This document shows positions 7,762 to 29,734 of a DNA stretch of 64,000 nt, one piece after another. This DNA is from Eledone cirrhosa (Eukaryota), in assembly GCA_964016885.1 (NCBI GenBank), contig OZ024740.1, positions 55,428,001 to 55,492,000 on the forward strand. The letters are read 5' to 3'. Position 1 is the stretch's first letter; each line of letters starts with the position of its first letter. Under the pieces are notes generated by a model. That model was not told the origin of the DNA. It saw only the letters and a list, made by a program, of their open reading frames with translations, and did no database searches. Made by a program: the position numbers and the translations under genes.

Positions 7762-7782
7762 AATAATAATAATAATAATAAT
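7762..7782. repeat. (AAT)7 spacer between units A and B
   Basis: Read directly from sequence. Confidence 0.97.
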
Positions 7783-8044
7783 GATTTCTTTATTAACCAC
7801 AAGGGTTTACATAAAGTAGACATTAAGGACAGTGCAGGACAATACAGGACGGTACAAATGGGCATTTCTGCGTGTAAAAAAACAAAAACAGAGGATGTAA
7901 CAAAAATAACAATGAAAATAACAATGAAAAATTCCCCAATAGGGGGGAGACTTCGGAGGGACATTTGTGGAGAAAGCCCAGTAAAAAGCCACAATGACCC
8001 TGACCACCAAGGCAAGTGCCCTCTCCCAGTTTTCCACCTTTAGT

Positions 8045-11000
8045 TTACAGATATATACTCAGAGTTGGCCCATTCACTCGGGCCATTCTTGCTTCTCTCA
8101 CCCATCTTTCAACAAAATGCTGGGAAGAGAGCACTTCCTTCTCTACTCTGATTTTCCTTTTCAAATGAAATTTGAAAAAGTCAATCAGAGCATCACCGAA
8201 GAGGTAAGTGCTCGTCTTCAGCCCTTTCAAACGTGTCCACCATACTATCTCTTTCGCCATGGCCACCAGACAGATAAAAACTGCCTGCCCTTCCCGGCTA
8301 AAGGAGGAGGGCGGGGCAATCCTCACGATAGACTCAGATGATAGCTGGATCCGTCCTAAACGCGACAGCAGGTGTTCGACATAAACCCACAAGTCAGCAA
8401 TTTTCGGACACTGGACGAGTGCGTGCAGGACCGTTTCGTCGCCCTGCGCGCATCTCGGACATGCCCGGCTGACGGCACCTCCATGCCTGTAGAGTTTATC
8501 CCGAACTGGCAAGGCTCCTCGGTAGCACTGCCAGGCCAGAGATTTCTGGAAGTTGTCCATAGGCCCTGGCCCGAAAGTTCTTCCGAAGAGATTGGCTAGT
8601 TGATTTTCGTCGACGCCTAGAGTTTCCCCAAGTACGTCGTCGCTCTTCCCCTCCACTAATCCTCTATAGAACGCCGAGGTGGAGTTTCCACCGATCACAT
8701 TGCCCGATTGGTCGAGGGCTGTGAGCGCCTGAAGACATTCCAGTCTCCAGGCGCTCCCTCTCGGTCTTCGCTTGACCCAGGACTGCAGCTCCGTCAAGGA
8801 AACGAGCTGGGGAAACACGCGTCTAGCAAACGGCGACCACACCTGATCACCGTCGAGGAAGAGGTGGAGATGTCGTAGCCTGAGCGCGTGCCTGCGCATC
8901 ATCAGCCACGGCATGCCCAGCCCTCCACGTAGCGGGTGTTGACAACAGATGGACCGCCTGACCATCGGAGCGCGTCCCTTCCACAAAAAGCGAAAGAGCA
9001 AACGCTCCAGCACAGTCAGGCGAGGCTTAGGACAAGGTACGACGGTCAGGCGGTAGCAGATGACGGACGCGATGTACGCGTTAGCCACCTCCGCTCGACC
9101 TTTCAGGGATAGCTTCCTCTCGGCCCATTTCTGGGTGAGAGAAGCCACCCTGCTCGTCACCTCGTCCCAGTTTTTGTCCGTCTGGAGGTCCGGACCGAAC
9201 CAGACCCCTAGCAATTTAACCGGTCCGTCCGTCCAGCGTCCGACGACGCTGTTGGACGGCATGGACCTGCCTCTCCAGGTGCCGAGCTGCAGGCCCACTG
9301 ACTTTTCCTGGTTGATCATTGCTCCTGTCACCGCTTCGTATTCTCTTAGTGTAGTGCCGATCGCCTCGATGTGTTTGGCGTTCGACACCACTACGGTGAC
9401 ATCGTCCGCATATGCTGATACGGATCTTCCGCATCCTAGTTCGCGCGGGACCCCCCTCAACGTCTCCAGTTTGTGCAGTAATGGCTCGAGAGTCAATACG
9501 TACAAGAGGGACGAGAGGGGACATCCTTGGCGGACCGAGCGCATGATGTTGAACGGTTCCGACAGGTGACCGTTCACTCTCACCACAGAGCAGATGTCGC
9601 TGTGCATGGCAGCGATCCAGCCTCTGAAGACGGGCCCAAAGCCAGCCGCCCTCAGGACTGCCGCTAGGTAACGATGGTCGACCCTATCGAAAGCTTTCGA
9701 ATGATCTAAATTGATCAAGGACCCACCCGTGCCAGGTTCCCTAGCTACCCTCTCTACGATGTATCGCATGAGGTGGAGGTTGTCGTGGATGGATCTGTCG
9801 GGAATGGCGCATGTCTGCGCCTCTCCCACCAGACCATCAACGACAAGCGCCAACCTCTTTGCTAGCACCTTGGCCAAAATCTTAAACTCTGTGTTTAGCA
9901 GAGTTATGGGCCGGAAATTTTCTATGTTATCCCCCTTGTTCGGATCCTTTCTCAGCAGTGCCACCGCTCCTCGGCTCACAGAACTGGGAATTCTCCCGTT
10001 CTGTTGCCAGTTGCAGTAGACGTCCGCCAAGAGGCCTCCGAACAAGTCTGGCATCTGTACGTAAAGTTCATAGGGCAGAACATCCAAACCAGGCGATTTA
10101 CCCCTTGTGCAGCCAGTCATTGCCTCCCTTACTTCAGCGGCTGTTATCGGCTTTTCGCAACACTTCGCCTCAGTGGCCGAGAGCCGCGGCAGTCCGTCGA
10201 GGTAGACACTAAAGTCCATCCCTCTACCCGGCCCACCGCTGCCCCCGAACAGCTGAGCGAAGTGTCGCTGAAAAGCTTCACACATTTGCCCGGGATCGAG
10301 TAGCATGCGCCCGTCGTGGTCCACCAAAGACCGGATCGTGGCTTTGGTGCCACGACGCGCCTCCGCCACTCGGGCCCATTGAACGGCTTTCGTCCCCTCG
10401 TGTCTGAGAGCACGCACCCTTGCTCTGACAACGCAGCCTTCGTGCTTTGCATTGAAGAATTGGTCAAGGGCCAATTTCGCCGCAAGCACGTCGGTCGCAA
10501 TACCTTTGCTAAGCGCCTCGTCTAATTTTCTAACTAGTTCTCCCTCTGCTCTATTTTTCTCTATTGCTAAAGTCTTACTAAACCTAATGGACTCTATTCT
10601 AATTGCTCTTTTCAGAGCAAACCACCACTTGTTGTTGACGATGGCCCCCGTCAACGCCCGCTTAACTAGTTCGCTAATCCGGTCTCTGTAGGCCTTGCGC
10701 GCTGGTAAGGACGCGTTTAGCTTCCAGTAGCCGGGTCCTCGTCTATGAAGCCTATCTAAGTCAAGCACACAGATCACGAATTTGTGGTCCGTGTAGCTGA
10801 CTATCTTGAATTGTGGACAGCCTATGCTAGACCTATCTATTTCCCTACAAAATACTCTATCTAGGTATGATCTGGATGACCCTATGCGGTTTGTCCAAGT
10901 CCACATTGGCACATTCGGGAAATCCAATCGGTACCTGTCAGACAGTTCAAAACGCCTGAGCAGGTTGGTGAGGCTCTTGCACCCTCCACCCCTATCCGCT

Positions 11001-11464
11001 AATCCCACACAGTCCCAGCGTGCATCTAAGATCCCGTTCCAGTCGCCCACTAACACTAAAGAGCGCGACGTTCCAAGAAAGGTCTCCAGACGCCGGAAGA
11101 AATCAGGCCGCCCTGCTCCTGTCGGGGCATAGACGGCCACTAGCCTGAAAGCTTGCCCGTCTCCGCTGGTCACGTCCAGCACCACCAGCTTACCCTCTGG
11201 GTCCAGGAAGATGGCCCGTATGGCGAGATCCAAACCTCTCCGAAAAAGTACAGCAACTCCTCCACCGGATCCAGGACGGCTGGGAGATGCGTACACATCG
11301 TAGCCGCCGAAGATCGGTGCGAAGGCCCGTGCTTCGGAGATTCTGGTCTCGCTGATGGCCACTACATCTATGTTTAGTGACCTGAGGTCGTTGAGCAGGT
11401 GACCCTGCTTCCATGACGACCCCAAGCCACGCGCATTTATGCTGCCTATTCTGAGTGAGGTCAT
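8045..11464 (-). CDS. ORF2 (APE-RT-CCHC), unit B; carries PGLDG>PGLDV and DQSK>DHSK substitutions
   Basis: 1139 aa open frame with the same motifs as unit A. Confidence 0.95.
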   Translation of the reverse strand: MTSLRIGSINARGLGSSWKQGHLLNDLRSLNIDVVAISETRISEARAFAPIFGGYDVYASPSRPGSGGGVAVLFRRGLDLAIRAIFLDPEGKLVVLDVTSGDGQAFRLVAVYAPTGAGRPDFFRRLETFLGTSRSLVLVGDWNGILDARWDCVGLADRGGGCKSLTNLLRRFELSDRYRLDFPNVPMWTWTNRIGSSRSYLDRVFCREIDRSSIGCPQFKIVSYTDHKFVICVLDLDRLHRRGPGYWKLNASLPARKAYRDRISELVKRALTGAIVNNKWWFALKRAIRIESIRFSKTLAIEKNRAEGELVRKLDEALSKGIATDVLAAKLALDQFFNAKHEGCVVRARVRALRHEGTKAVQWARVAEARRGTKATIRSLVDHDGRMLLDPGQMCEAFQRHFAQLFGGSGGPGRGMDFSVYLDGLPRLSATEAKCCEKPITAAEVREAMTGCTRGKSPGLDVLPYELYVQMPDLFGGLLADVYCNWQQNGRIPSSVSRGAVALLRKDPNKGDNIENFRPITLLNTEFKILAKVLAKRLALVVDGLVGEAQTCAIPDRSIHDNLHLMRYIVERVAREPGTGGSLINLDHSKAFDRVDHRYLAAVLRAAGFGPVFRGWIAAMHSDICSVVRVNGHLSEPFNIMRSVRQGCPLSSLLYVLTLEPLLHKLETLRGVPRELGCGRSVSAYADDVTVVVSNAKHIEAIGTTLREYEAVTGAMINQEKSVGLQLGTWRGRSMPSNSVVGRWTDGPVKLLGVWFGPDLQTDKNWDEVTSRVASLTQKWAERKLSLKGRAEVANAYIASVICYRLTVVPCPKPRLTVLERLLFRFLWKGRAPMVRRSICCQHPLRGGLGMPWLMMRRHALRLRHLHLFLDGDQVWSPFARRVFPQLVSLTELQSWVKRRPRGSAWRLECLQALTALDQSGNVIGGNSTSAFYRGLVEGKSDDVLGETLGVDENQLANLFGRTFGPGPMDNFQKSLAWQCYRGALPVRDKLYRHGGAVSRACPRCAQGDETVLHALVQCPKIADLWVYVEHLLSRLGRIQLSSESIVRIAPPSSFSREGQAVFICLVAMAKEIVWWTRLKGLKTSTYLFGDALIDFFKFHLKRKIRVEKEVLSSQHFVERWVREARMARVNGPTLSIYL

Positions 11465-11499
11465 GTTTAAAATAGAGTGGAAAAGATGGGAAAGACCAC

Positions 11500-13596
11500 T
11501 TACCGTACTTTTGGTAGAGGAGGGATGGTTTTTACATCCCTTTTCACTTGATCGTCTGGTGAAGGGACCGTTGAATCGTCCCTTCGGCTGGTCGTCGGCT
11601 CTTCTAAGAGAATGTCTGAGTATACTCTTCGATTGATGGTTCCTCCTAGGTCCCTGAAATCACCAACTGCGTTGGGGAATTTCGTTTTAATGTTTGTGTA
11701 TTGTTTCTGTGCTATTTTTAGCAGTCTTATGTTAGTTGGCGTTTTGATTGGTGCTGGTATTATGTAGTCCTGTTGTGAAATGTCTGTGTGTTCAATTATG
11801 TAAGTCATTAGTTTCTTGTTGTGTGTATTTATTGCCGTGCATTTGTTTTTCTGGGGGTGGGGTGTGGTTCTGCTATTTTCTTGTCGTTGTTGCTGGGTGT
11901 GTGTGTTTTGTTGTTGTGTTTGCGATGTTGGTGCGTGTGGTGGTGGTGTTGAAGGTGTTGTTGGCGGTGGGGTTGTCGCCGGTGGTGATGGTGGTGCTAG
12001 TGTGGGTGGTGATGGTGTTGGTGTTGTTGCTGCTGTGGGTCTCTTTGCAGTAGACTTTACCCTTTTCTCATTTCTTTCCTCCCTTTTCAAAGGCGACGAT
12101 GCGCTGCTTCTGCGTTTGTGCCTTCTTGCGACCTTTTGCCATCCCTCTCCCACCTCACACTCCATGTCTGATTCTGTGAGGTCGGGGAGGGGTACCAGCT
12201 CCACTCTTTCACTTGTTGTTGTTGGTGATGTTTGCACTGGAGTCTCTGTTGCAGCTGCATTTGGTATTGCTGTTGTTGTTGTTAATATTTCCACTGCTGC
12301 TGCTGTTTTTGATTTCCGTGGCGTGGGTATGGGTGCCACGGACCTATCGTTCCTGGTTGCCGCTTGTCCTGTTGCTGGTAGCCGTGGAGCCGGATTCGGA
12401 AGGAGGGGGGTTTTCTCCTTTCTCAGGGTCTTCTCGTTGCAGAAGGCCCTGAGGTGAGTCTTCGATCCACAGCGAAAGCATTTCGGGCGTTTGCCCTCAA
12501 CACTTATGGGCAGTTGAGTGCCGTTATCGAAGTCTATCACATCCGGGATAGCTTCGATGCACTCCTGGTTGGTTTGGATTAGCATCTCAATGGAGGAGCC
12601 GACCCAATCTTCTCTTACTTTTTTCTGTACTTGCAGTACAGTTGTTTTGTCCTCGATTCCGATTAGGACAGACGCGGCCAGCCAAGAAGGGGTCATTCCG
12701 GGGGGGACGTGGGTCAGTTTGACCCTCACAATTTTTTGCCCGCAGTAGGAGGGCACCAACACCATTTCCTCGCTCCTTAGGGTCACTACTGATTGGGCCT
12801 TTGCCTCCTGGGGTGTGGCAAAAAGTACGTCTACGGTGGCATATTTTTTGCCTCGGGTGATGTGCGTTTTCCGCTGCCACACAGACCCCAAGGCTTTTTG
12901 TATTTGGGCCTCTGTGGCTCTTTCCACCCTACGGGATTTTGTACTTACTGTACGGTACGTGACCGTACAGTGCTCTTGGGTTTTGAAAAATGTTTCCGCT
13001 GCCTTGCAGATTGCTCGGTGTCCGTTCTTTGTCACCATCTTCTTCGCTTCCTCTAATTCCTCATTTGTTATGAGGATTGTTTCCAAGTTTTTCGCAATAC
13101 CTGCAAATGAGATTGGTTTTTCTCTGCTGTTGTTGTTGTCGTCAGAGCTGCTGGTACTTTTGTTGTTGCTGCAGGTACTACGACTACTGCCTCCGCCGCT
13201 GTTGCTGTGGTTGTTGTTGGTGTTGCTGCTGCTAATGCTGTTGTTGTTTATGCTGCTGGTGATGCTGTTGCGGCTGCTACTGTTGTTTTCATTGTCACTG
13301 TTGCAGTTGTTATTACGGCTGCTACTGCTATTATTCCTGACGTCAGACGAATGAACTGGGTTTTCGTATTTCCCGCACACCTGTTTCGTCGCTGTCGTCG
13401 TCGTCGTGGAGAAACCTTGCACGCTTTGCACGAGACTTTTCTTTTCTTTCGTCACTTGCGAAAGAGAAGGGAGGGAGAGAGACACATTTAAAGAAGGGAG
13501 GGAGAGAGACAATCTTCTCTCTGCTTTAGTGATGATTGAGGAAGAAGAAGACGGAATGAGTGGGAGTGACGTATGAAATTTCTTTTTCGTAGCCAT
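11500..13596 (-). CDS. ORF1, unit B
   Basis: MATKK start homologous to unit A; the ORF track's longer call (to 13629) uses an upstream non-ATG start. Confidence 0.88.
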   Translation of the reverse strand: MATKKKFHTSLPLIPSSSSSIITKAERRLSLSLPSLNVSLSLPSLSQVTKEKKSLVQSVQGFSTTTTTATKQVCGKYENPVHSSDVRNNSSSSRNNNCNSDNENNSSSRNSITSSINNNSISSSNTNNNHSNSGGGSSRSTCSNNKSTSSSDDNNNSREKPISFAGIAKNLETILITNEELEEAKKMVTKNGHRAICKAAETFFKTQEHCTVTYRTVSTKSRRVERATEAQIQKALGSVWQRKTHITRGKKYATVDVLFATPQEAKAQSVVTLRSEEMVLVPSYCGQKIVRVKLTHVPPGMTPSWLAASVLIGIEDKTTVLQVQKKVREDWVGSSIEMLIQTNQECIEAIPDVIDFDNGTQLPISVEGKRPKCFRCGSKTHLRAFCNEKTLRKEKTPLLPNPAPRLPATGQAATRNDRSVAPIPTPRKSKTAAAVEILTTTTAIPNAAATETPVQTSPTTTSERVELVPLPDLTESDMECEVGEGWQKVARRHKRRSSASSPLKREERNEKRVKSTAKRPTAATTPTPSPPTLAPPSPPATTPPPTTPSTPPPHAPTSQTQQQNTHTQQQRQENSRTTPHPQKNKCTAINTHNKKLMTYIIEHTDISQQDYIIPAPIKTPTNIRLLKIAQKQYTNIKTKFPNAVGDFRDLGGTINRRVYSDILLEEPTTSRRDDSTVPSPDDQVKRDVKTIPPLPKVR

Positions 13597-13833
13597 GTTG
13601 TTTTGTTTAAAATGAAATGTTGGGTACAAAACCCCAATAACTGGTTATTTAACCCCGAAGGGCCAAATAACGGACAGAAAGACCCCTCTCACGAGGAGGA
13701 GGGTGTCTTTATCAACAATTTGGTTCAAGTTTTAAACAATTTACAATTGTTTTAACGGTTAAAAATTACTATACCTTACAGAGTCGAGCCTCCGTCAACC
13801 ATGGCATTCAATAATAATAATAATAATAATAAT

Positions 13834-14504
13834 GATCTGAAATCGGAGACTGAAGGACTGATTATATCGGCACAAGATCAGTGTCTGCCAACAAAAAATT
13901 ACCAACCAACATAATAAAAAATGGGTGCAGCCCATTATGCCGTGTATGCAAAAAACAATCAGAGACCATTGACCATATAATTTCAATGTGCAGTCCTATA
14001 GCTCCAACCGAATACCTAAACAGGCATGACAGAGCTGCACAATACATACATTGGATAATGTGTAAGCATTTTGACCTGCCCCATCAAAAGAATTGGTGGG
14101 AGCATCAACCACCTCCCATACTTGAAAAAGATCACATCTCAATCTTGTGGAACTTTAGCATCCAAACAGACCGAAAAATAGATGCAAATAGACCTGATAT
14201 AATATTGAAAGACTTTCAAAAGAGGGTATGCCTGCTAATTGATATGTCTGTTCCAATAGACAAGAATGTATCTATAAAAACATTAAAAAAATTGAGCAAG
14301 TATAAGGACCTGGAGATAGAAATTGGAAAAATGTGGAAATTGAGAACTAAAACAATACCAGTGGTTGTAGGCGCTCTGGGAATGATACCTAAGGGGTCTA
14401 ATGATTACGTATCGCAAATCCCAGGAAACCCGCGTATAGGAGAAATACAAAAGATAGTACTAATGGGAACTGCCCATATACTAAGGAAGATTCTGTCAAT
14501 ATAA
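13834..14504 (+). pseudogene. C-terminal CCHC + PD-(D/E)xK REL endonuclease fragment of R4/Dong ORF
   Basis: ORF 13881-14504 plus an upstream frameshifted segment; no RT domain. Confidence 0.85.
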
Positions 14505-14647
14505 GTACATCACAAGTCTAAACACTAAAGATGCATGTGTGAATATGTATGTTCTTTCTTGAACATGGCGGACCTTGTTGTCTCTTGAGGTCACTGGTTG
14601 TGACTTGGTGATAAGTTGTATGAACATAGAGCAAGATAAATGCAACT

Positions 14648-14648
<1 letters not shown>
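13834..14648 (+). mobile_element. 5'-truncated R4/Dong-clade (REL endonuclease) non-LTR element, copy 1, followed by a (TAA)n tail at 14649-14700
   Basis: DLKSETEGLIISAQDQ then, after a frameshift, CRVC..ETIDHIISMC, RHD, RPDI..LIDMSVP..K..KY, IPVVVGALG; 3'UTR ends in TAA repeats; preceded by (AAT)8. Confidence 0.9.
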
Positions 14649-14702
<54 letters not shown>

Positions 14703-14962
14703 TTTCTTTATTAACCACAAGGGTTTACATAAAGTAGACATTAAGGACAGTGCAGGACAATGCAGGACGGTACAAATGGGCATTTCTGCGTGTAAAAAAA
14801 CAAAAACAGAGGATGTAACAAAAATAACAATGAAAATAACAATGAAAAATTCCCCAATAGGGGGGAGACTTCGGAGGGACATTTGTGGAGAAAGCCCAGT
14901 AAAAAGCCACAATGACCCTGACCACCAAGGCAAGTGCCCTCTCCCAGTTTTCCACCTTTAGT

Positions 14963-17900
14963 TTACAGATATATACTCAGAGTCGGCCCATTCACTCGGG
15001 CCATTCTTGCTTCTCTCACCCATCTTTCAACAAAATGCTGGGAAGAGAGCACTTCCTTCTCTACTCTGATTTTCCTTTTCAAATGAAATTTGAAAAAGTC
15101 AATCAGAGCATCACCGAAGAGGTAAGTGCTCGTCTTCAGCCCTTTCAAACGTGTCCACCATACTATCTCTTTCGCCATGGCCACCAGACAGATAAAAACT
15201 GCCTGCCCTTCCCGGCTAAAGGAGGAGGGCGGGGCAATCCTCACGATAGACTCAGATGATAGCTGGATCCGTCCTAAACGCGACAGCAGGTGTTCGACAT
15301 AAACCCACAAGTCAGCAATTTTCGGACACTGGACGAGTGCGTGCAGGACGGTTTCGTCGCCCTGCGCGCATCTCGGACATGCCCGGCTGACGGCACCTCC
15401 ATGCCTGTAGAGTTTATCCCGAACTGGCAAGGCTCCTCGGTAGCACTGCCAGGCCAGAGATTTCTGGAAGTTGTCCATAGGCCCTGGCCCGAAAGTTCTT
15501 CCGAAGAGATTGGCTAGTTGATTTTCGTCGACGCCTAGAGTTTCCCCAAGTACGTCGTCGCTCTTCCCCTCCACTAATCCTCTATAGAACGCCGAGGTGG
15601 AGTTTCCACCGATCACATTGCCCGATTGGTCGAGGGCTGTGAGCGCCTGAAGACATTCCAGTCTCCAGGCGCTCCCTCTCGGTCTTCGCTTGACCCAGGA
15701 CTGCAGCTCCGTCAAGGAAACGAGCTGGGGAAAAACGCGTCTAGCAAACGGCGACCACACCTGATCACCGTCGAGGAAGAGGTGGAGATGTCGTAGCCTG
15801 AGCGCGTGCCTGCGCATCATCAGCCACGGCATGCCCAGCCCTCCACGTAGCGGGTGTTGACAACAGATGGACCGCCTGACCATCGGAGCACGTCCCTTCC
15901 ACAAAAAGCGAAAGAGCAAACGCTCCAGCGCAGTCAGGCGAGGCTTAGGACAAGTTACGACGGTTAGGCGGTAGCAGATGACAGACGCGATGTACGCGTT
16001 AGCCACCTCCGCTCGACCTTTCAGGGATAGCTTCCTCTCCGCCCATTTCTGGGTGAGAGAAGCCACCCTGCTCGTCACCTCGTCCCAGTTTTTGTCCGTC
16101 TGGAGGTCCGGACCGAACCAGACCCCTAGCAATTTAACCGGTCCGTCCGTCCAGCGTCCGACGACGCTGTTGGACGGCATGGACCTGCCTCTCCAGGTGC
16201 CGAGTTGCAGGCCCACTGACTTTTCCTGGTTGATCATTGCTCCTGTCACCGCTTCGTATTCTCTTAGTGTAGTGCCGATCGCCTCGATGTGTTTGGCGTT
16301 CGACACCACTACGGTGACATCGTCCGCATATGCTGACACGGATCTTCCGCATCCTAGTTCGCGCGGGACTCCCCTCAACGTCTCCAGTTTGTGCAGTAAT
16401 GGCTCGAGAGTCAATACGTACAAGAGGGACGAGAGGGGACATCCTTGGCGGACCGAGCGCATGAGGTTGAGCGGTTCCGACAGGTGACCGTTCACTCTCA
16501 CCACAGAGCAGATGTCGCTGTGCATGGCAGCGATCCAGCCTCTGAAGACGGGCCCAAAGCCAGCCGCCCTCAGGACTGCCGCTAGGTAACGATGGTCGAC
16601 CCTATCGAAAGCTTTCGACTGATCTAAATTGATCAAGGACCCACCCGTGCCAGGTTCCCTAGCTACCCTCTCTACGATGTATCGCATGAGGTGGAGGTTG
16701 TCGTGGATGGATCTGTCTGGAATGGCGCATGTCTGCGCCTCTCCCACCAGACCACCAACGACAAGCGCCAACCTCTTTGCTAGCACCTTGGCCAAAATCT
16801 TAAACTCTGTGTTTAGCAGAGTTATGGGCCGGAAATTGTCTATGTTATCCCCCTTGTTCGGATCCTTTCTCAGCAGTGCCACCGCTCCTCGGCTCACAGA
16901 ATTGGGAATTCTCCCGTTCTGTTGCCAGTTGCAGTAGACGTCCGCCAAGAGGCCTCCGAACAAGTCTGGCATCTGTACGTAAAGTTCATAGGGCAGACCA
17001 TCCAAACCAGGCGATTTACCCCTTGTGCAGCCAGTCATTGCCTCCCTTACTTCAGCGGCTGTTATCGGCTTTTCGCAACACTTCGCCTCAGTGGCCGAGA
17101 GCCGCGGCAGTCCGTCGAGGTAGACACTAAAGTCCATCCCTCTACCCGGCCCACCGCTGCCCCCGAACAGCTGAGCGAAGTGTCGCTGAAAAGCTTCACA
17201 CATTTGCCCGGGATCGAGTAGCATGCGCCCGTCGTGGTCCACCAAAGACCGGATCGTGGCTTTGTTGCCACGACGCGCCTCCGCCACTCGGGCCCATTGA
17301 ACGGCTTTCGTCCCCTCGTGTCTGAGAGCACGCACCCTAGCTCTGACAACGCAGCCTTCGTGCTTTGCATTGAAGAATTGGTCAAGGGCCAATTTCGCCG
17401 CAAGCACGTCGGTCGCAATGCCTTTGCTAAGCGCCTCGTCTAATTTTCTAACTAGTTCTCCCTCTGCTCTATTTTTCTCTATTGCTAAAGCCTTACTAAA
17501 CCTAATCGATTCTATTCTAATCGCTCTTTTCAGAGCAAACCACCACTTGTTGTTGACGATGGCCCCCGTCAACGCCCGCTTAACTAGTTCGCTAATCCGG
17601 TCTCTGTAGGCCTTGCGCGCTGGTAAGGACGCGTTTAGCTTCCAGTAGCCGGGTCCTCGTCTATGAAGCCTATCTAAGTCAAGCACACAGATCACGAATT
17701 TGTGGTCCGTGTAGCTGACTATCTTGAATTGTGGACAGCCTATGCTAGACCTATCTATTTCCCTACAAAATACTCTATCTAGATATGATCTGGATGACCC
17801 TATGCGGTTTGTCCAAGTCCACATTGGCACATTCGGGAAATCCAATCGGTACCTGTCAGACAGTTCAAAACGCCTGAGCAGGTTGGTGAGGCTCTTGCAC

Positions 17901-18382
17901 CCTCCACCCCTATCCGCTAATCCCACACAGTCCCAGCGTGCATCTAAGATCCCGTTCCAGTCGCCCACTAACACTAAAGAGCGGGACGTTCCAAGAAAGG
18001 TCTCCAGACGCCGGAAGAAATCAGGCCGCCCTGCTGCTGTCGGGGCATAGACGGCCACTAGCCTGAAAGCTTGCCCGTCTCCGCTGGTCACGTCCAGCAC
18101 CACCAGCTTACCCTCTGGGTCCAGGAAGATGGCCCGTATGGCGAGATCCAAACCTCTCCGAAAAAGCACAGCCACTCCTCCACCCGATCCAGGACGGCTG
18201 GGAGATGCGTACACATCGTAGCCGCCGAAGATCGGTGCGAAGGCCCGTGCTTCGGAGATTCTGGTCTCGCTGATGGCCACTACATCTATGTTTAGTGACC
18301 TGAGGTCGTTGAGCAGGTGACCCTGCTTCCATGACGACCCCAAGCCACGCGCATTTATGCTGCCTATTCTGAGTGAGGTCAT
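14963..18382 (-). CDS. ORF2 (APE-RT-CCHC), unit C
   Basis: 1139 aa open frame, catalytic motifs intact. Confidence 0.95.
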   Translation of the reverse strand: MTSLRIGSINARGLGSSWKQGHLLNDLRSLNIDVVAISETRISEARAFAPIFGGYDVYASPSRPGSGGGVAVLFRRGLDLAIRAIFLDPEGKLVVLDVTSGDGQAFRLVAVYAPTAAGRPDFFRRLETFLGTSRSLVLVGDWNGILDARWDCVGLADRGGGCKSLTNLLRRFELSDRYRLDFPNVPMWTWTNRIGSSRSYLDRVFCREIDRSSIGCPQFKIVSYTDHKFVICVLDLDRLHRRGPGYWKLNASLPARKAYRDRISELVKRALTGAIVNNKWWFALKRAIRIESIRFSKALAIEKNRAEGELVRKLDEALSKGIATDVLAAKLALDQFFNAKHEGCVVRARVRALRHEGTKAVQWARVAEARRGNKATIRSLVDHDGRMLLDPGQMCEAFQRHFAQLFGGSGGPGRGMDFSVYLDGLPRLSATEAKCCEKPITAAEVREAMTGCTRGKSPGLDGLPYELYVQMPDLFGGLLADVYCNWQQNGRIPNSVSRGAVALLRKDPNKGDNIDNFRPITLLNTEFKILAKVLAKRLALVVGGLVGEAQTCAIPDRSIHDNLHLMRYIVERVAREPGTGGSLINLDQSKAFDRVDHRYLAAVLRAAGFGPVFRGWIAAMHSDICSVVRVNGHLSEPLNLMRSVRQGCPLSSLLYVLTLEPLLHKLETLRGVPRELGCGRSVSAYADDVTVVVSNAKHIEAIGTTLREYEAVTGAMINQEKSVGLQLGTWRGRSMPSNSVVGRWTDGPVKLLGVWFGPDLQTDKNWDEVTSRVASLTQKWAERKLSLKGRAEVANAYIASVICYRLTVVTCPKPRLTALERLLFRFLWKGRAPMVRRSICCQHPLRGGLGMPWLMMRRHALRLRHLHLFLDGDQVWSPFARRVFPQLVSLTELQSWVKRRPRGSAWRLECLQALTALDQSGNVIGGNSTSAFYRGLVEGKSDDVLGETLGVDENQLANLFGRTFGPGPMDNFQKSLAWQCYRGALPVRDKLYRHGGAVSRACPRCAQGDETVLHALVQCPKIADLWVYVEHLLSRLGRIQLSSESIVRIAPPSSFSREGQAVFICLVAMAKEIVWWTRLKGLKTSTYLFGDALIDFFKFHLKRKIRVEKEVLSSQHFVERWVREARMARVNGPTLSIYL

Positions 18383-18417
18383 GTTTAAAATAGAGTGGAA
18401 AAGATGGGAAAGACCAC

Positions 18418-20508
18418 TTACCGTACTTTTGGTAGAGGAGGGATGGTTTTTACATCCCTTTTCACTTGATCGTCTGGTGAAGGGACCGTTGAATCGTCCC
18501 TTCGGCTGGTCGTCGGCTCTTCTAAGAGAATGTCTGAGTATACTCTTCGATTGATGGTTCCTCCTAGGTCCCTGAAATCACCAACTGCGTTGGGGAATTT
18601 CGTTTTAATGTTTGTGTATTGTTTCTGTGCTATTTTTAGCAGTCTTATGTTAGTTGGCGTTTTGATTGGTGCTGGTATTATGTAGTCCTGTTGTGAAATG
18701 TCTGTGTGTTCAATTATGTAAGTCATTAGTTTCTTGTTGTGTGTGTTTATTGCCGTGCATTTGTTTTTCTGGGGGTGGGGTGTGGTTCTGCTATTTTCTT
18801 GTCGTTGTTGCTGGGTGTGTGTGTTTTGTTGTTGTGTTTGCGATGTTGGTGCCTGTGGTGGTGGTGTTGAAGGTGTTGTTGGCGGTGGGGTTGTCGCCGG
18901 TGGTGATGGTGGTGCTGGTGTGGGTGGTGATGGTGTTGGTGGTGTTGCTGCTGTGGGTCTCTTTGCAGTAGACTTTACCCTTTTCTCATTTCTTTCCTCC
19001 CTTTTCAAAGGCGACGATGCGCTGCTTCTGCGTTTGTGCCTTCTTGCGACCTTTTGCCATCCCTCTCCCACCTCACACTCCATGTCTGATTCTGTAAGGT
19101 CGGGGAGGGGTACCAGCTCCACTCTTTCACTTGTTGTTGTTGGTGATGTTTGCACTGGAGTCTCTGTTGCAGCTGCATTTGGTATTGCTGTTGTTGTTGT
19201 TAATATTTCCACTGCTGCTGCTGTCTTTGATTTCCGTGGAGTGGGTATGGGTGCCACGGACCTATCGTTCCTGGTTGCCGCTTGTTCTGTTGCTGGTAGC
19301 CGTGGAGCCGGATTCGGAAGGAGGGGGGTTTTCTCCTTTCTCAGGGTCTTCTCGTTGCAGAAGGCCCTGAGGTGAGTCTTCGATCCACAGCGAAAGCATT
19401 TCGGGCGTTTGCCCTCAACACTTATGGGCAGTTGAGTGCCGTTATCGAAGTCTATCACATCCGGGATAGCTTCGATGCACTCCTGGTTGGTTTGGATTAG
19501 CATCTCAATGGAGGAGCCGACCCAATCTTCTCTTACTTTTTTCTGTACTTGCAGTACAGTTGTTTTGTCCTCGATTCCGACGAGGACAGACGCGGCCAGC
19601 CAAGAAGGGGTCATTCCGGGGGGGACGTGGGTCAGTTTGACCCTCACAATTTTTTGCCCGCAGTAGGAGGGCACCAACACCATTTCCTCGCTCCTTAGGG
19701 TCACTACTGATTGGGCCTTTGCCTCCTGGGGTGTGGCAAAAAGTACGTCTACGGTGGCGTATTTTTTGCCTCGGGTGATGTGCGTTTTCCTCTGCCACAC
19801 AGACCCCAAGGCTTTTTGTATTTGGGCCTCTGTGGCTCTTTCCACCCTACGGGATTTTGTACTTAATGTACGGTACGTGACCGTACAGTGCTCTTGGGTT
19901 TCGAAAAAATTTTTCGCTGCCTTGCAGATTGCTCGGTGTCCGTTCTTTGTCACCATCTTCTTCGCTTTCTCTAATTCCTCATTTGTTATGAGGATTGTTT
20001 CCAAGTTTTTCGCAATACCTGCAAATGAGATTGGTTTTTCTCTGCTGTTGTTGTTGTCGTCAGAGCTGCTGGTACTTTTGTTGCTGCAGGTACTACGACT
20101 ACTGCCTCCGCCGCTGTTGCTGTGGTTGTTGTTGGTGTTGCTGCTGCTAATGCTGTTGTTGTTTATGCTGCTGGTGATGCTGTTGCGGCTGCTACTGTTG
20201 TTTTCATTGTCACTGTTGCTGTTGTTATTACGGCTGCTACTGCTATTATTCCTGACGTCAGACGAATGAACTGGGTTTTCGTATTTCCCGCACACCTGTT
20301 TCGTCGCTGTCGTCGTCGTGGAGAAACCTTGCACGCTTTGCACGAGACTTTTCTTTTCTTTCGTCACTTGCGAAAGAGAAGGGAGGGAGAGAGACACATT
20401 TAAAGAAGGGAGGGAGAGAGACAATCTTCTCTCTGCTGTAGTGATGATTGAGGAAGAAGAAGACGGAATGAGTGGGAGTGACGTATGAAATTTCTTTTTC
20501 GTAGCCAT
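18418..20508 (-). CDS. ORF1, unit C
   Basis: 696 aa; two in-frame triplet deletions relative to unit A. Confidence 0.9.
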   Translation of the reverse strand: MATKKKFHTSLPLIPSSSSSIITTAERRLSLSLPSLNVSLSLPSLSQVTKEKKSLVQSVQGFSTTTTATKQVCGKYENPVHSSDVRNNSSSSRNNNSNSDNENNSSSRNSITSSINNNSISSSNTNNNHSNSGGGSSRSTCSNKSTSSSDDNNNSREKPISFAGIAKNLETILITNEELEKAKKMVTKNGHRAICKAAKNFFETQEHCTVTYRTLSTKSRRVERATEAQIQKALGSVWQRKTHITRGKKYATVDVLFATPQEAKAQSVVTLRSEEMVLVPSYCGQKIVRVKLTHVPPGMTPSWLAASVLVGIEDKTTVLQVQKKVREDWVGSSIEMLIQTNQECIEAIPDVIDFDNGTQLPISVEGKRPKCFRCGSKTHLRAFCNEKTLRKEKTPLLPNPAPRLPATEQAATRNDRSVAPIPTPRKSKTAAAVEILTTTTAIPNAAATETPVQTSPTTTSERVELVPLPDLTESDMECEVGEGWQKVARRHKRRSSASSPLKREERNEKRVKSTAKRPTAATPPTPSPPTPAPPSPPATTPPPTTPSTPPPQAPTSQTQQQNTHTQQQRQENSRTTPHPQKNKCTAINTHNKKLMTYIIEHTDISQQDYIIPAPIKTPTNIRLLKIAQKQYTNIKTKFPNAVGDFRDLGGTINRRVYSDILLEEPTTSRRDDSTVPSPDDQVKRDVKTIPPLPKVR

Positions 20509-20747
20509 GTTGTTTTTTGTTTAAAATGAAATTTTGGGTACAAAACCCCAATAACTGGTTATTTAACCCCGAAGGGCCAAATAACAGACAGAAAGACCCC
20601 TCTCACGAGGAGGAGGGTGTCTTTATCAACAATTTGGTTCAAGTTTTAAACAATTTACAATTGTTTTAACGGTTAAAAATTACTATACCTTACAGAGCCG
20701 AGCCTCCGTCAACCATGGCATTCAATAATAATAATAATAATAATAAT

Positions 20748-21561
20748 GATCTGAAATCGGAGACTGAAGGACTGATTATATCGGCACAAGATCAGTGTCT
20801 GCCAACAAAAAATTACCAACCAACATAATAAAAAATGGGTGCAGCCCATTATGCCGTGTATGCAAAAAACAATCAGAGACCATTGACCATATAATTTCAA
20901 TGTGCAGTCCTATAGCTCCAACCGAATACCTAAACAGGCATGACAGAGCTGCACAATACATACATTGGATAATGTGTAAGCATTTTGACCTGCCCCATCA
21001 AAAGAATTGGTGGGAGCATCAACCACCTCCCATACTTGAAAAAGATCACATCTCAATCTTGTGGAACTTTAGCATCCAAACAGACCGAAAAATAGATGCA
21101 AATAGACCTGATATAATATTGAAAGACTTTCAAAAGAGGGTATGCCTGCTAATTGATATGTCTGTTCCAATAGACAAGAATGTATCTATAAAAACATTAA
21201 AAAAATTGAGCAAGTATAAGGACCTGGAGATAGAAATTGGAAAAATGTGGAAATTGAGAACTAAAACAATACCAGTGGTTGTAGGCGCTCTGGGAATGAT
21301 ACCTAAGGGGTCTAATGATTACGTATCGCAAATCCCAGGAAACCCGCGTATAGGAGAAATACAAAAGATAGTACTAATGGGAACTGCCCATATACTAAGG
21401 AAGATTCTGTCAATATAAGTACATCACAAGTCTAAACACTAAAGATGCATGTGTGAATATGTATGTTCTTTCTTGAACATGGCGGACCTTGTTGTCTCTT
21501 GAGGTCACTGGTTGTGACTTGGTGATAAGTTGTATGAACATAGAGCAAGATAAATGCAACT

Positions 21562-21562
<1 letters not shown>
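20748..21562 (+). mobile_element. 5'-truncated R4/Dong-clade element, copy 2 (matches copy 1), (TAA)n tail 21563-21608
   Basis: Same 815 bp length, truncation point, frameshift and 207 aa translation as 13834-14648. Confidence 0.9.
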
Positions 21563-21610
<48 letters not shown>

Positions 21611-21858
21611 TTTCTTTATTAACCACAAGGGTTTACATAAAGTAGACATTAAGGACAGTGCAGGACAATGCAGGACGGTACAAATGGGCATTTCTGCGTG
21701 TAAAAAACAAAAACAGAGGATGTAACAAAAAATAACAATGAAAAATTCCCCAATAGGGGGGAGACTTCGGAGGGACATTTGTGGAGAAAGCCCAGTAAAA
21801 AGCCACAATGACCCTGACCACCAAGGCAAGTGCCCTCTCCCAGTTTTCCACCTTTAGT

Positions 21859-24800
21859 TTACAGATATATACTCAGAGTCGGCCCATTCACTCGGGCCAT
21901 TCTTGCTTCTCTCACCCATCTTTCAACAAAATGCTGGGAAGAGAGCACTTCCTTCTCTACTCTGATTTTCCTTTTCAAATGAAATTTGAAAAAGTCAATC
22001 AGAGCATCACCGAAGAGGTAAGTGCTCGTCTTCAGCCCTTTCAAACGTGTCCACCATACTATCTCTTTCGCCATGGCCACCAGACAGATAAAAACTGCCT
22101 GCCCTTCCCGGCTAAAGGAGGAGGGCGGGGCAATCCTCACGATAGACTCAGATGATAGCTGGATCCGTCCTAAACGCGACAGCAGGTGTTCGACATAAAC
22201 CCACAAGTCAGCAATTTTCGGACACTGGACGAGTGCGTGCAGGACGGTTTCGTCGCCCTGCGCGCATCTCGGACATGCCCGGCTGACGGCACCTCCATGC
22301 CTGTAGAGTTTATCCCGAACTGGCAAGGCTCCTCGGTAGCACTGCCAGGCCAGAGATTTCTGGAAGTTGTCCATAGGCCCCGGCCCGAAAGTTCTTCCGA
22401 AGAGATTGGCTAGTTGATTTTCGTCGACGCCTAGAGTTTCCCCAAGTACGTCGTCGCTCTTCCCCTCCACTAATCCTCTATAGAACGCCGAGGTGGAGTT
22501 TCCACCGATCACATTGCCCGATTGGTCGAGGGCTGTGAGCGCCTGAAGACATTCCAGTCTCCAGGCGCTCCCTCTCGGTCTTCGCTTGACCCAGGACTGC
22601 AGCTCCGTCAAGGAAACGAGCTGGGGAAAAACGCGTCTAGCAAACGGCGACCACACCTGATCACCGTCGAGGAAGAGGTGGAGATGTCGTAGCCTGAGCG
22701 CGTGCCTGCGCATCATCAGCCACGGCATGCCCAGCCCTCCACGTAGCGGGTGTTGACAACAGATGGACCGCCTGACCATCGGAGCACGTCCCTTCCACAA
22801 AAAGCGAAAGAGCAAACGCTCCAGCGCAGTCAGGCGAGGCTTAGGACAAGGTACGACGGTTAGGCGGTAGCAGATGACAGACGCGATGTACGCGTTAGCC
22901 ACCTCCGCTCGACCTTTCAGGGATAGCTTCCTCTCCGCCCATTTCTGGGTGAGAGAAGCCACCCTGCTCGTCACCTCGTCCCAGTTTTTGTCCGTCTGGA
23001 GGTCCGGACCGAACCAGACCCCTAGCAATTTAACCGGTCCGTCCGTCCAGCGCCCGACGACGCTGTTGGACGGCATGGACCTGCCTCTCCAGGTGCCGAG
23101 CTGCAGGCCCACTGACTTTTCCTGGTTGATCATTGCTCCTGTCACCGCTTCGTATTCTCTTAGTGTAGTGCCGATCGCCTCGATGTGTTTGGCGTTCGAC
23201 ACCACTACGGTGACATCGTCGGCATATGCTGACACGGATCTTCCGCATCCTAGTTCGCGCGGGACTCCCCTCAACGTCTCCAGTTTGTGCAGTAATGGCT
23301 CGAGAGTCAATACGTACAAGAGGGACGAGAGGGGACATCCTTGGCGGACCGAGCGCATGATGTTGAACGGTTCCGACAGGTGACCGTTTACTCTCACCAC
23401 AGAGCAGATGTCGCTGTGCATGGCAGCGATCCAGCCTCTGAAGACGGGCCCAAAGCCAGCCGCCCTCAGGACTGCCGCTAGGTAACGATGGTCGACCCTA
23501 TCGAAAGCTTTCGACTGATCTAAATTGATCAAGGACCCACCCGTGCCAGGTTCCCTAGCTACCCTCTCTACGATGTATCGCATGAGGTGGAGGTTGTCGT
23601 GGATGGATCTGTCGGGAATGGCGCATGTCTGCGCCTCTCCCACCAGACCACCAACGACAAGCGCCAACCTCTTTGCTAGCACCTTGGCCAAAATCTTAAA
23701 CTCTGTGTTTAGCAGAGTTATGGGCCGGAAATTGTCTATGTTATCCCCCTTGTTCGGATCCTTTCTCAGCAGTGCCACCGCTCCTCGGCTCACAGAACTG
23801 GGAATTCTCCCGTTCTGTTGCCAGTTGCAGTAGACGTCCGCCAAGAGGCCTCCGAACAAGTCTGGCATCTGTACGTAAAGTTCATAGGGCAGACCATCCA
23901 AACCAGGCGATTTACCCCTTGTGCAGCCAGTCATTGCCTCCCTTACTTCAGCGGCTGTTATCGGCTTTTCGCAACACTTCGCCTCAGTGGCCGAGAGCCG
24001 CGGCAGTCCGTCGAGGTAGACACTAAAGTCCATCCCTCTACCCGGCCCACCGCTGCCCCCGAACAGCTGAGCGAAGTGTCGCTGAAAAGCTTCACACATT
24101 TGCCCGGGATCGAGTAGCATGCGCCCGTCGTGGTCCACCAAAGACCGGATCGTGGCTTTGTTGCCACGACGCGCCTCCGCCACTCGGGCCCATTGAACGG
24201 CTTTCGTCCCCTCGTGTCTGAGAGCACGCACCCTAGCTCTGACAACGCAGCCTTCGTGCTTTGCATTGAAGAATTGGTCAAGGGCCAATTTCGCCGCAAG
24301 CACGTCGGTCGCAATGCCTTTGCTAAGCGCCTCGTCTAATTTTCTAACTAGTTCTCCCTCTGCTCTATTTTTCTCTATTGCTAAAGCCTTACTAAACCTA
24401 ATCGATTCTATTCTAATCGCTCTTTTCAGAGCAAACCACCACTTGTTGTTGACGATGGCCCCCGTCAACGCCCGCTTAACTAGTTCGCTAATCCGGTCTC
24501 TGTAGGCCTTGCGCGCTGGTAAGGACGCGTTTAGCTTCCAGTAGCCGGGTCCTCGTCTATGAAGCCTATCTAAGTCAAGCACACAGGTCACGAATTTGTG
24601 GTCCGTGTAGCTGACTATCTTGAATTGTGGACAGCCTATGCTAGACCTATCTATTTCCCTACAAAATACTCTATCTAGATATGATCTGGATGACCCTATG
24701 CGGTTTGTCCAAGTCCACATTGGCACATTCGGGAAATCCAATCGGTACCTGTCAGACAGTTCAAAACGCCTGAGCAGGTTGGTGAGGCTCTTGCACCCTC

Positions 24801-25278
24801 CACCCCTATCCGCTAATCCCACACAGTCCCAGCGTGCATCTAAGATCCCGTTCCAGTCGCCCACTAACACTAAAGAGCGGGACGTTCCAAGAAAGGTCTC
24901 CAGACGCCGGAAGAAATCAGGCCGCCCTGCTCCTGTCGGGGCATAGACGGCCACTAGCCTGAAAGCTTGCCCGTCTCCGCTGGTCACGTCCAGCACCACC
25001 AGCTTACCCTCTGGGTCCAGGAAGATGGCCCGTATGGCGAGATCCAAACCTCTCCGAAAAAGCACAGCAACTCCTCCACCGGATCCAGGACGGCTGGGAG
25101 ATGCGTACACATCGTAGCCGCCGAAGATCGGTGCGAAGGCCCGTGCTTCGGAGATTCTGGTCTCGCTGATGGCCACTACATCTATGTTTAGTGACCTGAG
25201 GTCGTTGAGCAGGTGACCCTGCTTCCATGACGACCCCAAGCCACGCGCATTTATGCTGCCTATTCTGAGTGAGGTCAT
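21859..25278 (-). CDS. ORF2 (APE-RT-CCHC), unit D
   Basis: 1139 aa open frame, motifs intact. Confidence 0.95.
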   Translation of the reverse strand: MTSLRIGSINARGLGSSWKQGHLLNDLRSLNIDVVAISETRISEARAFAPIFGGYDVYASPSRPGSGGGVAVLFRRGLDLAIRAIFLDPEGKLVVLDVTSGDGQAFRLVAVYAPTGAGRPDFFRRLETFLGTSRSLVLVGDWNGILDARWDCVGLADRGGGCKSLTNLLRRFELSDRYRLDFPNVPMWTWTNRIGSSRSYLDRVFCREIDRSSIGCPQFKIVSYTDHKFVTCVLDLDRLHRRGPGYWKLNASLPARKAYRDRISELVKRALTGAIVNNKWWFALKRAIRIESIRFSKALAIEKNRAEGELVRKLDEALSKGIATDVLAAKLALDQFFNAKHEGCVVRARVRALRHEGTKAVQWARVAEARRGNKATIRSLVDHDGRMLLDPGQMCEAFQRHFAQLFGGSGGPGRGMDFSVYLDGLPRLSATEAKCCEKPITAAEVREAMTGCTRGKSPGLDGLPYELYVQMPDLFGGLLADVYCNWQQNGRIPSSVSRGAVALLRKDPNKGDNIDNFRPITLLNTEFKILAKVLAKRLALVVGGLVGEAQTCAIPDRSIHDNLHLMRYIVERVAREPGTGGSLINLDQSKAFDRVDHRYLAAVLRAAGFGPVFRGWIAAMHSDICSVVRVNGHLSEPFNIMRSVRQGCPLSSLLYVLTLEPLLHKLETLRGVPRELGCGRSVSAYADDVTVVVSNAKHIEAIGTTLREYEAVTGAMINQEKSVGLQLGTWRGRSMPSNSVVGRWTDGPVKLLGVWFGPDLQTDKNWDEVTSRVASLTQKWAERKLSLKGRAEVANAYIASVICYRLTVVPCPKPRLTALERLLFRFLWKGRAPMVRRSICCQHPLRGGLGMPWLMMRRHALRLRHLHLFLDGDQVWSPFARRVFPQLVSLTELQSWVKRRPRGSAWRLECLQALTALDQSGNVIGGNSTSAFYRGLVEGKSDDVLGETLGVDENQLANLFGRTFGPGPMDNFQKSLAWQCYRGALPVRDKLYRHGGAVSRACPRCAQGDETVLHALVQCPKIADLWVYVEHLLSRLGRIQLSSESIVRIAPPSSFSREGQAVFICLVAMAKEIVWWTRLKGLKTSTYLFGDALIDFFKFHLKRKIRVEKEVLSSQHFVERWVREARMARVNGPTLSIYL

Positions 25279-25313
25279 GTTTAAAATAGAGTGGAAAAGA
25301 TGGGAAAGACCAC

Positions 25314-27411
25314 TTACCGTACTTTTGGTAGAGGAGGGATGGTTTTTACATCCCTTTTCACTTGATCGTCTGGTGAAGGGACCGTTGAATCGTCCCTTCG
25401 GCTGGTCGTCGGCTCTTCTAAGAGAATGTCTGAATATACTCTTCGATTAATGGTTCCTCCTAGGTCCCTGAAATCACCAACTGCGTTGGGGAATTTCGTT
25501 TTAATGTTTGTGTATTGTTTCTGTGCTATTTTTAGCAGTCTTATGTTAGTTGGCGTTTTGATTGGTGCTGGTATTATGTAGTCCTGTTGTGAAATGTCTG
25601 TGTGTTCAATTATGTAAGTCATTAGTTTCTTGTTGTGTGTGTTTATTGCCGTGCATTTGTTTTTCTGGGGGTGGGGTGTGGTTCTGCTATTTTCTTGTCG
25701 TTGTTGCTGGGTGTGTGTGTTTTGTTGTTGTGTTTGCGATGTTGGTGCTTGTGGTGGTGGTGTTGAAGGTGTTGTTGGCGGTGGGGTTGTCGCCGGTGGT
25801 GATGGTGGTGCTGGTGTGGGTGGTGATGGTGTTGGTGGTGTTGCTGCTGTGGGTCTCTTTGCAGTAGACTTTACCCTTTTCTCATTTCTTTCCTCCCTTT
25901 TCAAAGGCGACGATGCGCTGCTTCTGCGTTTGTGCCTTCTTACGACCTTTTGCCATCCCTCTCCCACCTCACACTCCATGTCTGATTCTGTAAGGTCGGG
26001 GAGGGGTACCAGCTCCACTCTTTCACTTGTTGTTGTTGATGATGTTTGCACTGGAGTCTCTGTTGCAGCTGCATTTGGTATTGCTGTTGTTGTTGTTAAT
26101 ATTTCCACTGCTGCTGCTGTCTTTGATTTCCGTGGAGTGGGTATGGGTGCCACGGACCTATCGTTCCTGGTTGCCGCTTGTCCTGTTGCTGGTAGCCGTG
26201 GAACCGGATTCGGGAGGAGGGGGGTTTTCTCCTTTCTCATGGTCTTCTCGTTGCAGAAGGCCCTGAGGTGAGTCTTCGATCCACTGCGAAAGCATTTCGG
26301 GCGTTTGCCCTCAACACTTATGGGCAGTTGAGTGCCGTTATCGAAGTCTATCACATCCGGGATAGCTTCGATGCACTCCTGGTTGGTTTGGATTAGCATC
26401 TCAATGGAGGAGCCGACCCAATCTTCTCTTACTTTTTTCTGTACTTGCAGTACAGTTGTTTTGTCCTCGATTCCGACGAGGACAGACGCGGCCAGCCAAG
26501 AAGGGGTCATTCCGGGGGGGACGTGGGTCAGTTTGACCCTCACAATTTTTTGCCCACAGTAGGAGGGCACCAACACCATTTCCTCGCTCCTTAGGGTCAC
26601 TACTGATTGGGCCTTTGCCTCCTGAGGTGTGGCAAAAAGTACGTCTACGGTGGCGTATTTTTTTGCCTCGGGTGATGTGCGTTTTCCTCTGCCACACAGA
26701 CCCCAAGGCTTTTTGTATTTGGGCCTCTGTGGCTCTTTCCACCCTACGGGATTTTGTACTTACTGTACGGTACGTGACCGTACAGTGCTCTTGGGTTTCG
26801 AAAAAATTTTTCGCTGCCTTGCAGATTGCTCGGTGTCCGTTCTTTGTCACCATCTTCTTCGCTTCCTCTAATTCCTCATTTGTTATGAGGATTGTTTCCA
26901 GGTTTTTCGCAATACCTGCAAATGAGATTGGTTTTTCTCTGCTGTTGTTGTTGTCGTCAGAGCTGCTGGTACTTTTGTTGTTGCTGCAGGTACTACGACT
27001 ACTGCCTCCGCCGCTGTTGCTGTGGTTGTTGTTGGTGTTGCTGCTGCTAATGCTGTTGTTGTTTATGCTGCTGGTGATGCTGTTGCGGCTGCTACTGTTG
27101 TTTTCATTGTCACTGTTGCTGTTGTTATTACGGCTGCTACTGCTATTATTCCTGACGTCAGACGAATGAACTGGGTTTTCGTATTTCCCGCACACCTGTT
27201 TCGTCGCTGTCGTCGTCGTCGTGGAGAAACCTTGCACGCTTTGCACGAGACTTTTCTTTTCTTTCGTCACTTGCGAAAGAGAAGGGAGGGAGAGAGACAC
27301 ATTTAAAGAAGGGAGGGAGAGAGACAATCTTCTCTCTGCTGTAGTGATGATTGAGGAAGAAGAAGACGGAATGAGTGAGAGTGACGTATGAAATTTCTTT
27401 TTGGTAGCCAT
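25314..27411 (-). pseudogene. ORF1, unit D, with +1 frameshift and CCHC Cys>Ser
   Basis: T7 instead of T6 at 26658-26664 splits the ORF; CFRCG>CFRSG near 26285. Confidence 0.78.
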
Positions 27412-27858: not shown

Positions 27859-27872
27859 AACGTAAAATGACG

Positions 27873-29730: not shown

Positions 29731-29734
29731 CATA

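Follow-up and report, generated by a model that had tools for sequence, protein, structure and literature searches.

Identical Dong-like fragments in two adjacent spacers of a Tx1-like LINE array in Eledone cirrhosa: proposed copying of a filled spacer

A 64,000-nucleotide stretch of Eledone cirrhosa DNA (assembly GCA_964016885.1, contig OZ024740.1, forward-strand positions 55,428,001–55,492,000), referred to here as the window, contains a tandem array of Tx1-like long interspersed nuclear elements (LINEs) in which two neighboring spacers carry the same truncated insert of the Dong type. Self-comparison and junction mapping identify at least five LINE units, U0 to U4, arranged head-to-tail on the minus strand with an (AAT)n tract at every unit junction. 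Three of the five spacers in the window are plain (AAT)7–10 + GAT and two hold a Dong-like insert; each spacer has 7–10 repeat units, and the LINE units are non-clonal, differing by 0.55–1.06%. The leftmost unit, U0 (1–1702; self-BLAST and alignment), is a 5′ part clipped by the window start and is followed by an empty spacer of (AAT)10 + GA (1703–1734). U1 (1735–7761) is full-length with intact open reading frames (ORFs) of 698 (ORF1) and 1139 amino acids (ORF2), and a second empty spacer, (AAT)7 + GA (7762–7784), separates it from U2 (7785–13809), in which both ORFs are also intact. In the next spacer, (AAT)8 + GAT (13810–13836), which from its junctions and a homolog motif is likely the upstream copy of a Dong target duplication, precedes the first fragment, Dong1 (13837–14648, plus strand), and a (TAA)17 tract (14649–14702) forms the common tail of Dong1 and the 3′ end of U3. 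U3 (14703–20723) is a full-length unit by its ORFs (ORF2 14963–18382, ORF1 18418–20508, both on the minus strand) and domains, and is flanked by both Dong copies, with (AAT)8 + GAT (20724–20750), Dong2 (20751–21562, plus strand) and a (TAA)15 tail (21563–21610) aligning on its right. U4 (21611–27624) is also full-length with an intact ORF2, while a single-base change within a run of T near 26658 interrupts its ORF1. The array boundary was mapped to an (AAT)7 tract at 27625–27645.

Counted with the preceding GAT, Dong1 (13834–14648) and Dong2 (20748–21562) are both 815 bp long and align with 0 differences at a period of 6914 bp. The alignment bears out what the initial annotation had reported, namely two 815-bp inserts with the same cut point, the same frameshift, (AAT)8 in front of each and tails of 17 and 15 units. 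A reading frame opened at 13834 stops after 25 codons, and a tblastn search with the homolog P0007 places a frame change at 13893–13905 in Dong1 (near 13905) and at 20807–20819 in Dong2. Homology of the fragment begins only at 13837, and Asp precedes Leu in none of the 113 motif-matching homologs among the 120 listed of 255 matches, 99 of which have Gly at this position. Because of this late start and the lack of any homolog with Asp there, the GAT is probably target-derived, as the end of an (AAT)kGAT duplication, which would leave an insert proper of ∼812 bp. Of the two origins proposed earlier for this trinucleotide, target site duplication or microhomology, the first is therefore favored from protein-level comparison, short of proof on the DNA.

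The fragment has a CCHC finger and a PD..D/E restriction-like endonuclease, followed by a 3′ untranslated region. Both motifs, the pairing expected of Dong/R4 elements, are found in P0001 and in 117 and 102 of the 120 listed homologs, respectively, which are 51–64% identical to the fragment. In 3 of 3 homologs scanned, RVT_1 was found without Exo_endo_phos, as in single-ORF elements that have a reverse transcriptase (RT) but no apurinic endonuclease (APE), and a structure search with P0007 matched R2 chains only. The (TAA)n tail and the (TAA)n target also agree with published descriptions of Dong as a member of the R4 lineage with TAA repeats upstream (PMC3774820), and the C-terminal position of the CCHC finger and the endonuclease is a further likeness (PMC3774820). 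Assignment of this RT-less fragment to Dong/R4 thus draws on its motifs, homologs, tail and target and should be read as a prediction. In contrast to a complete Dong element, the insert is the last 0.8 kb only, is frameshifted and cannot move by itself.

A single origin of the two inserts is near certain. We compared 4 of 24 sequencing runs over 20600–30800 (no RNA run was among the 24 listed, which says nothing about expression). Dong family contigs from two of them carry one base more at position 20819, with 3 mismatches to the window in 330 letters (X4) and 13 in 794 (X5); Dong1 and Dong2 have in common the frameshift and substitutions that these contigs lack. Letters private to the fragment include those at 20873 and 21199–21200. 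The decay of the fragment therefore appears older than its copying. That a short non-autonomous Dong derivative inserted twice independently, an idea already called implausible in the initial annotation, now seems scarcely credible. Dong-like elements did enter (AAT)n beside a Tx1 copy repeatedly within the window (38860–39020, 44890–45033 and 45070–45940), but those three fragments, which served as a control and belong to a second Dong-like family (41.5% amino-acid identity to P0001), are 85–91% alike and have three different cut points. Furthermore, the X4 family contig continues 409 letters further upstream than the fragment, and neither the X4 nor the X5 contig has the frameshift.

While the Dong copies are identical, the LINE bodies around them are not. 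In ∼6.0 kb, 33 substitutions separate U3 from U4 and 58 separate it from U2 (57 after removal of alignment column 5819, an indel artefact that was dropped before breakpoints, private alleles and pN/pS were counted), as against 0 in the 815 bp of Dong. U3 and U4 are the closest pair among U1–U4 (0.55%). The best single crossover placed anywhere leaves at least 32 substitutions in the Tx1 body (range 32–57), so ∼4 differences are expected in Dong (4.1 with context adjustment; probability of none 0.017). Near-identity is therefore not uniform over the full period (0/815 versus at least 32/6020). The largest substitution-free block, at 13785–15484 with its twin at 20699–22380, spans 1700 bp, and a gap of at least this size had a probability of 0.005 when 32 differences were permuted at random. 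Within this block lie the tail-length difference and two indels (14794 and 14822–14832). Because a substitution bounds the block 26 bp to the left of the spacer, and indels lie within it 92–130 bp to the spacer's right, the copied piece was about 0.9–1.7 kb. A CpG effect was considered as the cause of the clean Dong fragment and rejected, with 4 of 32 differences at CpG.

These counts bear on the proposal of the initial annotation that a unit of ∼6.9 kb was copied as a whole. Unequal crossover of the full period could be old enough for the bodies to have drifted, with Dong identical by chance or through later conversion, or it could have joined haplotypes with different Tx1 units beside one Dong. 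Such exchange is described as amplifying insertions in the R1 array of Drosophila (PMC5932611), and it would account for the sister relation of U3 and U4 and for the absence of U4's alleles from U3 beyond 19307. We nevertheless consider it unlikely: at least 32 substitutions remain at any breakpoint with none in Dong, the differences have a synonymous excess, only one two-versus-two allele is common to U3 and U2, and alleles private to U3 alternate with those private to U4 at a 100-bp scale. A crossover of the whole unit with subsequent exchange between it and other units is likewise disfavored. What stands of the earlier proposal is the single insertion and the close relation of U3 and U4, which agree at 12 of 13 two-versus-two sites; the size of the copied unit sits poorly with 32–57 body substitutions that are rich in synonymous changes, with a substitution only 26 bp from the spacer and with a U4 that is closer to U0 than to U3 over the 1.7 kb common to all units. 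Rolling-circle amplification, offered as another route, would give near-identical units, which are not seen, and was rejected since the units are non-clonal.

The kind of substitution separating the bodies is also informative. Between U3 and U4 there are 16 synonymous and 15 nonsynonymous differences, where 24–29% synonymous would be expected (P = 0.003–0.007 versus neutrality), and the ratio of nonsynonymous to synonymous differences per site (pN/pS) is 0.29, with 0.24 and 0.26 for the other unit pairs tested. Private alleles are synonymous-rich in U1, U2 and U4 as well (P = 0.0015, 0.02 and 0.0075). The synonymous-rich U3/U4 differences indicate that the bodies diverged partly as separate retrotransposing lineages. 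At synonymous sites the unit bodies are ∼1.2% different, from which ∼10 differences would be expected in a neutral passenger and 0 were found in Dong (Fisher P = 0.0005 with equal-rate site counts; a transition-weighted count would weaken this somewhat). The same figures speak against Dong as a transduced passenger, under which transcription of a Tx1 unit ran past its own tail and across the antisense Dong as far as the following (ATT)n, and the RNA was then inserted again at the adjacent site. Its geometry is fitting, as the antisense fragment ends in ATC(ATT)8 like a normal unit end, and U3 and U4 are related. However, a recent copy should be near-identical to its source, while U3 and U4 differ at 33 sites, and a passenger in a diverged composite family should itself differ at about the synonymous rate. 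In addition, the window letter at 20873 is essentially without depth in run X1, so this run gives no sign of a multi-copy composite. We regard transduction as very improbable.

An assembly artefact, in which two alleles or read groups were joined through 99%-identical Tx1 bodies so that one Dong insertion is displayed twice, deserves attention because the array exceeds many read lengths, small homopolymer indels are present (14794/21701 and 26658) and the junctions are seen in the assembly only. On the other side, the unit differences are synonymous-rich and common between units, unlike errors; between alleles one would expect neutral differences, about as frequent in Dong as elsewhere; and the fragment keeps letters that the family contigs lack, so it was not polished towards the family. 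Misassembly is accordingly improbable in our judgement, and the feature is probably real as assembled, with the copying unit misjudged at first.

A giant target duplication is the closest rival to a spacer copied by repair. Here U3 would have been a fresh insertion whose priming took place in the (TAA)n tail. Once its cDNA reached the element's 5′ end, that end would have joined, or annealed to, the corresponding U2 5′ end ∼870 bp away, leaving the filled spacer duplicated around U3. This predicts well the observed limits of the copied piece, which agree almost exactly with the spacer (a difference 26 bp away on the left, indels 92–130 bp away on the right); neither ORF of U3 is disrupted, its private changes are the fewest (13), and all units begin at the same precise 5′ end. 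There is also a human analogue in LINE-bridged tandem duplications by L1 (PMC7058536; 10.1101/2024.08.27.596794), which account for 14 of 152 rearrangements in the second of these studies. Yet the neutral-looking private changes of U3 (0.22%), if acquired after insertion, predict ∼3.5 differences in Dong and would have to predate the insertion, and the event belongs to a rare class when the normal duplication at this locus is a 21–30-bp (AAT)n tract. Long target duplications are covered in the accessible text of PMC4245944 only by a category of >20 bp. We think this origin rather unlikely.

The reading that we tentatively place ahead of the others, though at somewhat under an even chance, is that successive insertions into (AAT)n built up the array, that Dong inserted once, and that the filled spacer was later copied into a neighboring spacer by gap repair or gene conversion. 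The weights conveyed for this and the other readings are judgements rather than computed posteriors. In a first step, the units would have arisen as separate retrotransposition events into (AAT)n, as in R1 tandems, which is suggested by the (AAT)n at every junction and the mainly synonymous unit differences. A single target-primed insertion would then have placed the 5′-cut, TAA-tailed Dong fragment tail-to-tail with a Tx1 unit, with an (AAT)kGAT duplication, and private decay including the frameshift would have followed. Finally, an empty spacer would have been broken, possibly by the (AAT)n-cutting endonuclease of either element, and repaired from the adjacent filled spacer, with the Tx1 5′ and 3′ ends serving as homology arms, so that ∼0.9–1.7 kb was copied and the unit bodies were unchanged. 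Empty spacers between the same two arms do exist in the array (3 of 5), and donor and recipient are indistinguishable. Two stronger formulations, both doubtful, are that this amounts to homing without a homing gene, where Tx1 or Dong endonucleases break empty spacers and repair from filled ones spreads a dead passenger through the array, or that one LINE insertion finishing on its neighbor's 5′ end produced an 870-bp target duplication.

Several observations weigh against the copying of a filled spacer alone. The agreement of U3 and U4 at 12 of 13 two-versus-two sites and their grouping as nearest full units (bootstrap 80) are unexpected if only the Dong region was copied. The 13 changes private to U3 (for example at 15955, 16205, 16465 and 18036) are neutral in appearance, with 4 synonymous and 8 nonsynonymous, as expected of a DNA-level duplicate. 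Co-conversion is not visible, given the substitution and indels so near the spacer on either side, and P = 0.017 against the whole-unit model is moderate only. The repair step itself draws on general knowledge of gap repair. In X1, only ∼60% of the depth has the extra base at 20819, and the frameshift may be present in other Dong copies too. Lastly, repeat tracts at all three junctions were masked in the read comparison, so the junctions are known as assembled only.

Run X1 lacks several array-specific letters (20873, 26203 and 26240) and for this reason probably represents another individual or a close species. A raw-read run, X23, of which ∼1/100 was read, yielded only three partial reads, and a metagenome scan with a 24-base junction sequence gave one match, L001, that covers those 24 bases alone and was dismissed as chance.

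Relationships among the units were further examined with an outgroup, the older copy U5, which does not align beyond column 3760 and was not used for polarizing there. Of the sites where U3 and U4 agree, three are clearly derived in U3 and U4 and three in U1 and U2, and at two other sites U3 has a derived allele in common with U1 and U2. In the 1.7 kb that all five have in common, U0 is the closest relative of U4, with 10 differences versus 16 between U4 and U3. U0 and U4 (1–1702 and 25942–27624), at opposite array ends, have alleles in common that are absent in U1–U3, two of which (26203 and 26240) are without depth in X1; a higher-order structure left of the window is possible. The 5′ 1.45 kb of U2 (12360–13800) has an unexplained excess of 13 private changes, mostly nonsynonymous and partly clustered, including four within 13 bp (12984–12996) that keep the ORF1 frame. 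This excess could reflect either conversion from a diverged subfamily or a local error.

The class label of the array units comes from domains and nearest structures rather than from an RT tree, and "Tx1" is best taken as a fair lead. ORF2 is intact in all four full units and has Exo_endo_phos, RVT_1 and zf-RVT Pfam domains, corresponding to APE, RT and a C-terminal zinc motif; ORF1, intact in three of the four, has a visible CX2CX4HX4C motif (CCHC knuckle). This combination is that of Tx1 elements. The best PDB matches of the array ORF2 are human L1 ORF2p (E = 2e-51, versus 1e-21 for R2), placing it with the L1 group over the R2 group. No named Tx1 reference was found among 47 matches, in a cluster look-up or in atlas clusters. 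(ATT)n adjoins all five 5′ junctions of the array and an older copy at 39160, a count from one window, and part of the tract may have come from the tail of the element itself.

Every array unit within 1–27624 has the same precise full-length 5′ end, and ORF2 is intact. Full-length 5′ ends in every copy are unusual for dispersed LINE insertions, and tandem placement may favor full-length copies. The right end of the array sits in the (ATT)n tail of a dispersed repeat on the minus strand (27646–27860) that we presume to be a short interspersed nuclear element (SINE), with four more copies at 77–83% within the window and very high depth in runs X1 and X4. Its resemblance to octopus SINEs, along with one weak match to a named sequence (P0167), tentatively suggests an octopus host. 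Similar 3′ sequence precedes (ATT)n in this repeat (27646–27700), in the unit 3′ ends (21609–21660) and in an old 65% relative (27880–27935). The SINE-like repeat and the Tx1-like LINE family may be a partner pair with a common tail, or the match may be part of a target duplication. An Rfam scan of 13000–31000 gave five matches, all far below gathering score.

Decayed older relatives of the array LINE (∼65–75% DNA identity) lie directly to the right of the array, at 27880–29740 and 35307–37309. An older Tx1-like copy on the plus strand (39160–44856; 93.6% to the array units over ORF2) has, on either side, (ATT)n and antisense 3′ pieces of the second Dong-like family with different cut points (38830–45940). 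This is the same tail-to-tail co-targeting, arising there from independent insertions. Fifteen runs (X1–X15) under 12 organism labels contain at least 39% of the words of the stretch, three of them being among the runs compared above, and a Tx1 contig from organism B (run X5) differs from U4 at 10 of 2370 letters. Either the Tx1-like and Dong-like families are young and common to several organisms, or the run labels describe mixed samples.

Tandem arrays of site-specific LINEs with amplified insertions inside them are already known from R1 in Drosophila. As described for R1, the units here are head-to-tail non-LTR (long terminal repeat) elements with target sequence between them, apparently built into a duplicated target, and the array takes up further elements, which multiply within it (PMC2718515, PMC5932611); the non-clonal units (pN/pS 0.24–0.29) complete the likeness. 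Unlike R1, the element is of L1/Tx1 type and targets an (AAT)n tract belonging to a SINE-like tail; the array is also small, and what was amplified is apparently the filled spacer without a unit body. Duplication of truncated R2 copies by recombination is described as uncommon (PMC2637433; PMC2718515). The Tx1 families Kibi, in (TC)n, and Koshi, in (TTC)n, which are APE elements on simple repeats, and tandem SINEU-3 insertions are comparable in forming tandems by sequential insertion (PMC4494074), whereas the target here is (ATT)n and the clade label of the array units is provisional. Recent activity of Dong-R4 as well as of L1-Tx1 is reported in Octopus vulgaris (PMC13282606). L1-mediated tandem duplication resembles the Dong-U3-Dong arrangement in that duplicated flanking DNA is joined through a newly inserted LINE (PMC7058536), but the duplications described there are somatic, megabase-scale and from tumors, while here the scale is sub-kilobase, both ends lie in microsatellite targets and the parallel concerns a rival reading only. 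In a literature search of limited coverage, we did not find the exact arrangement of a Dong-filled spacer copied within a Tx1-like array. Copying of a filled spacer rather than of a whole unit would be a modest variation on such arrays.

The present evidence concerns a single event at a single locus, within a class of structure already known from the Drosophila R1 arrays. Within it, the dead Dong fragment acts as a neutral tag, by which a spacer is seen to be copied on a different clock from the surrounding units, and the growth of a tandem LINE array is preserved here as a small natural record. If conversion or a giant target duplication proves true across haplotypes, LINE arrays that target microsatellites could spread passengers without whole-unit crossover.

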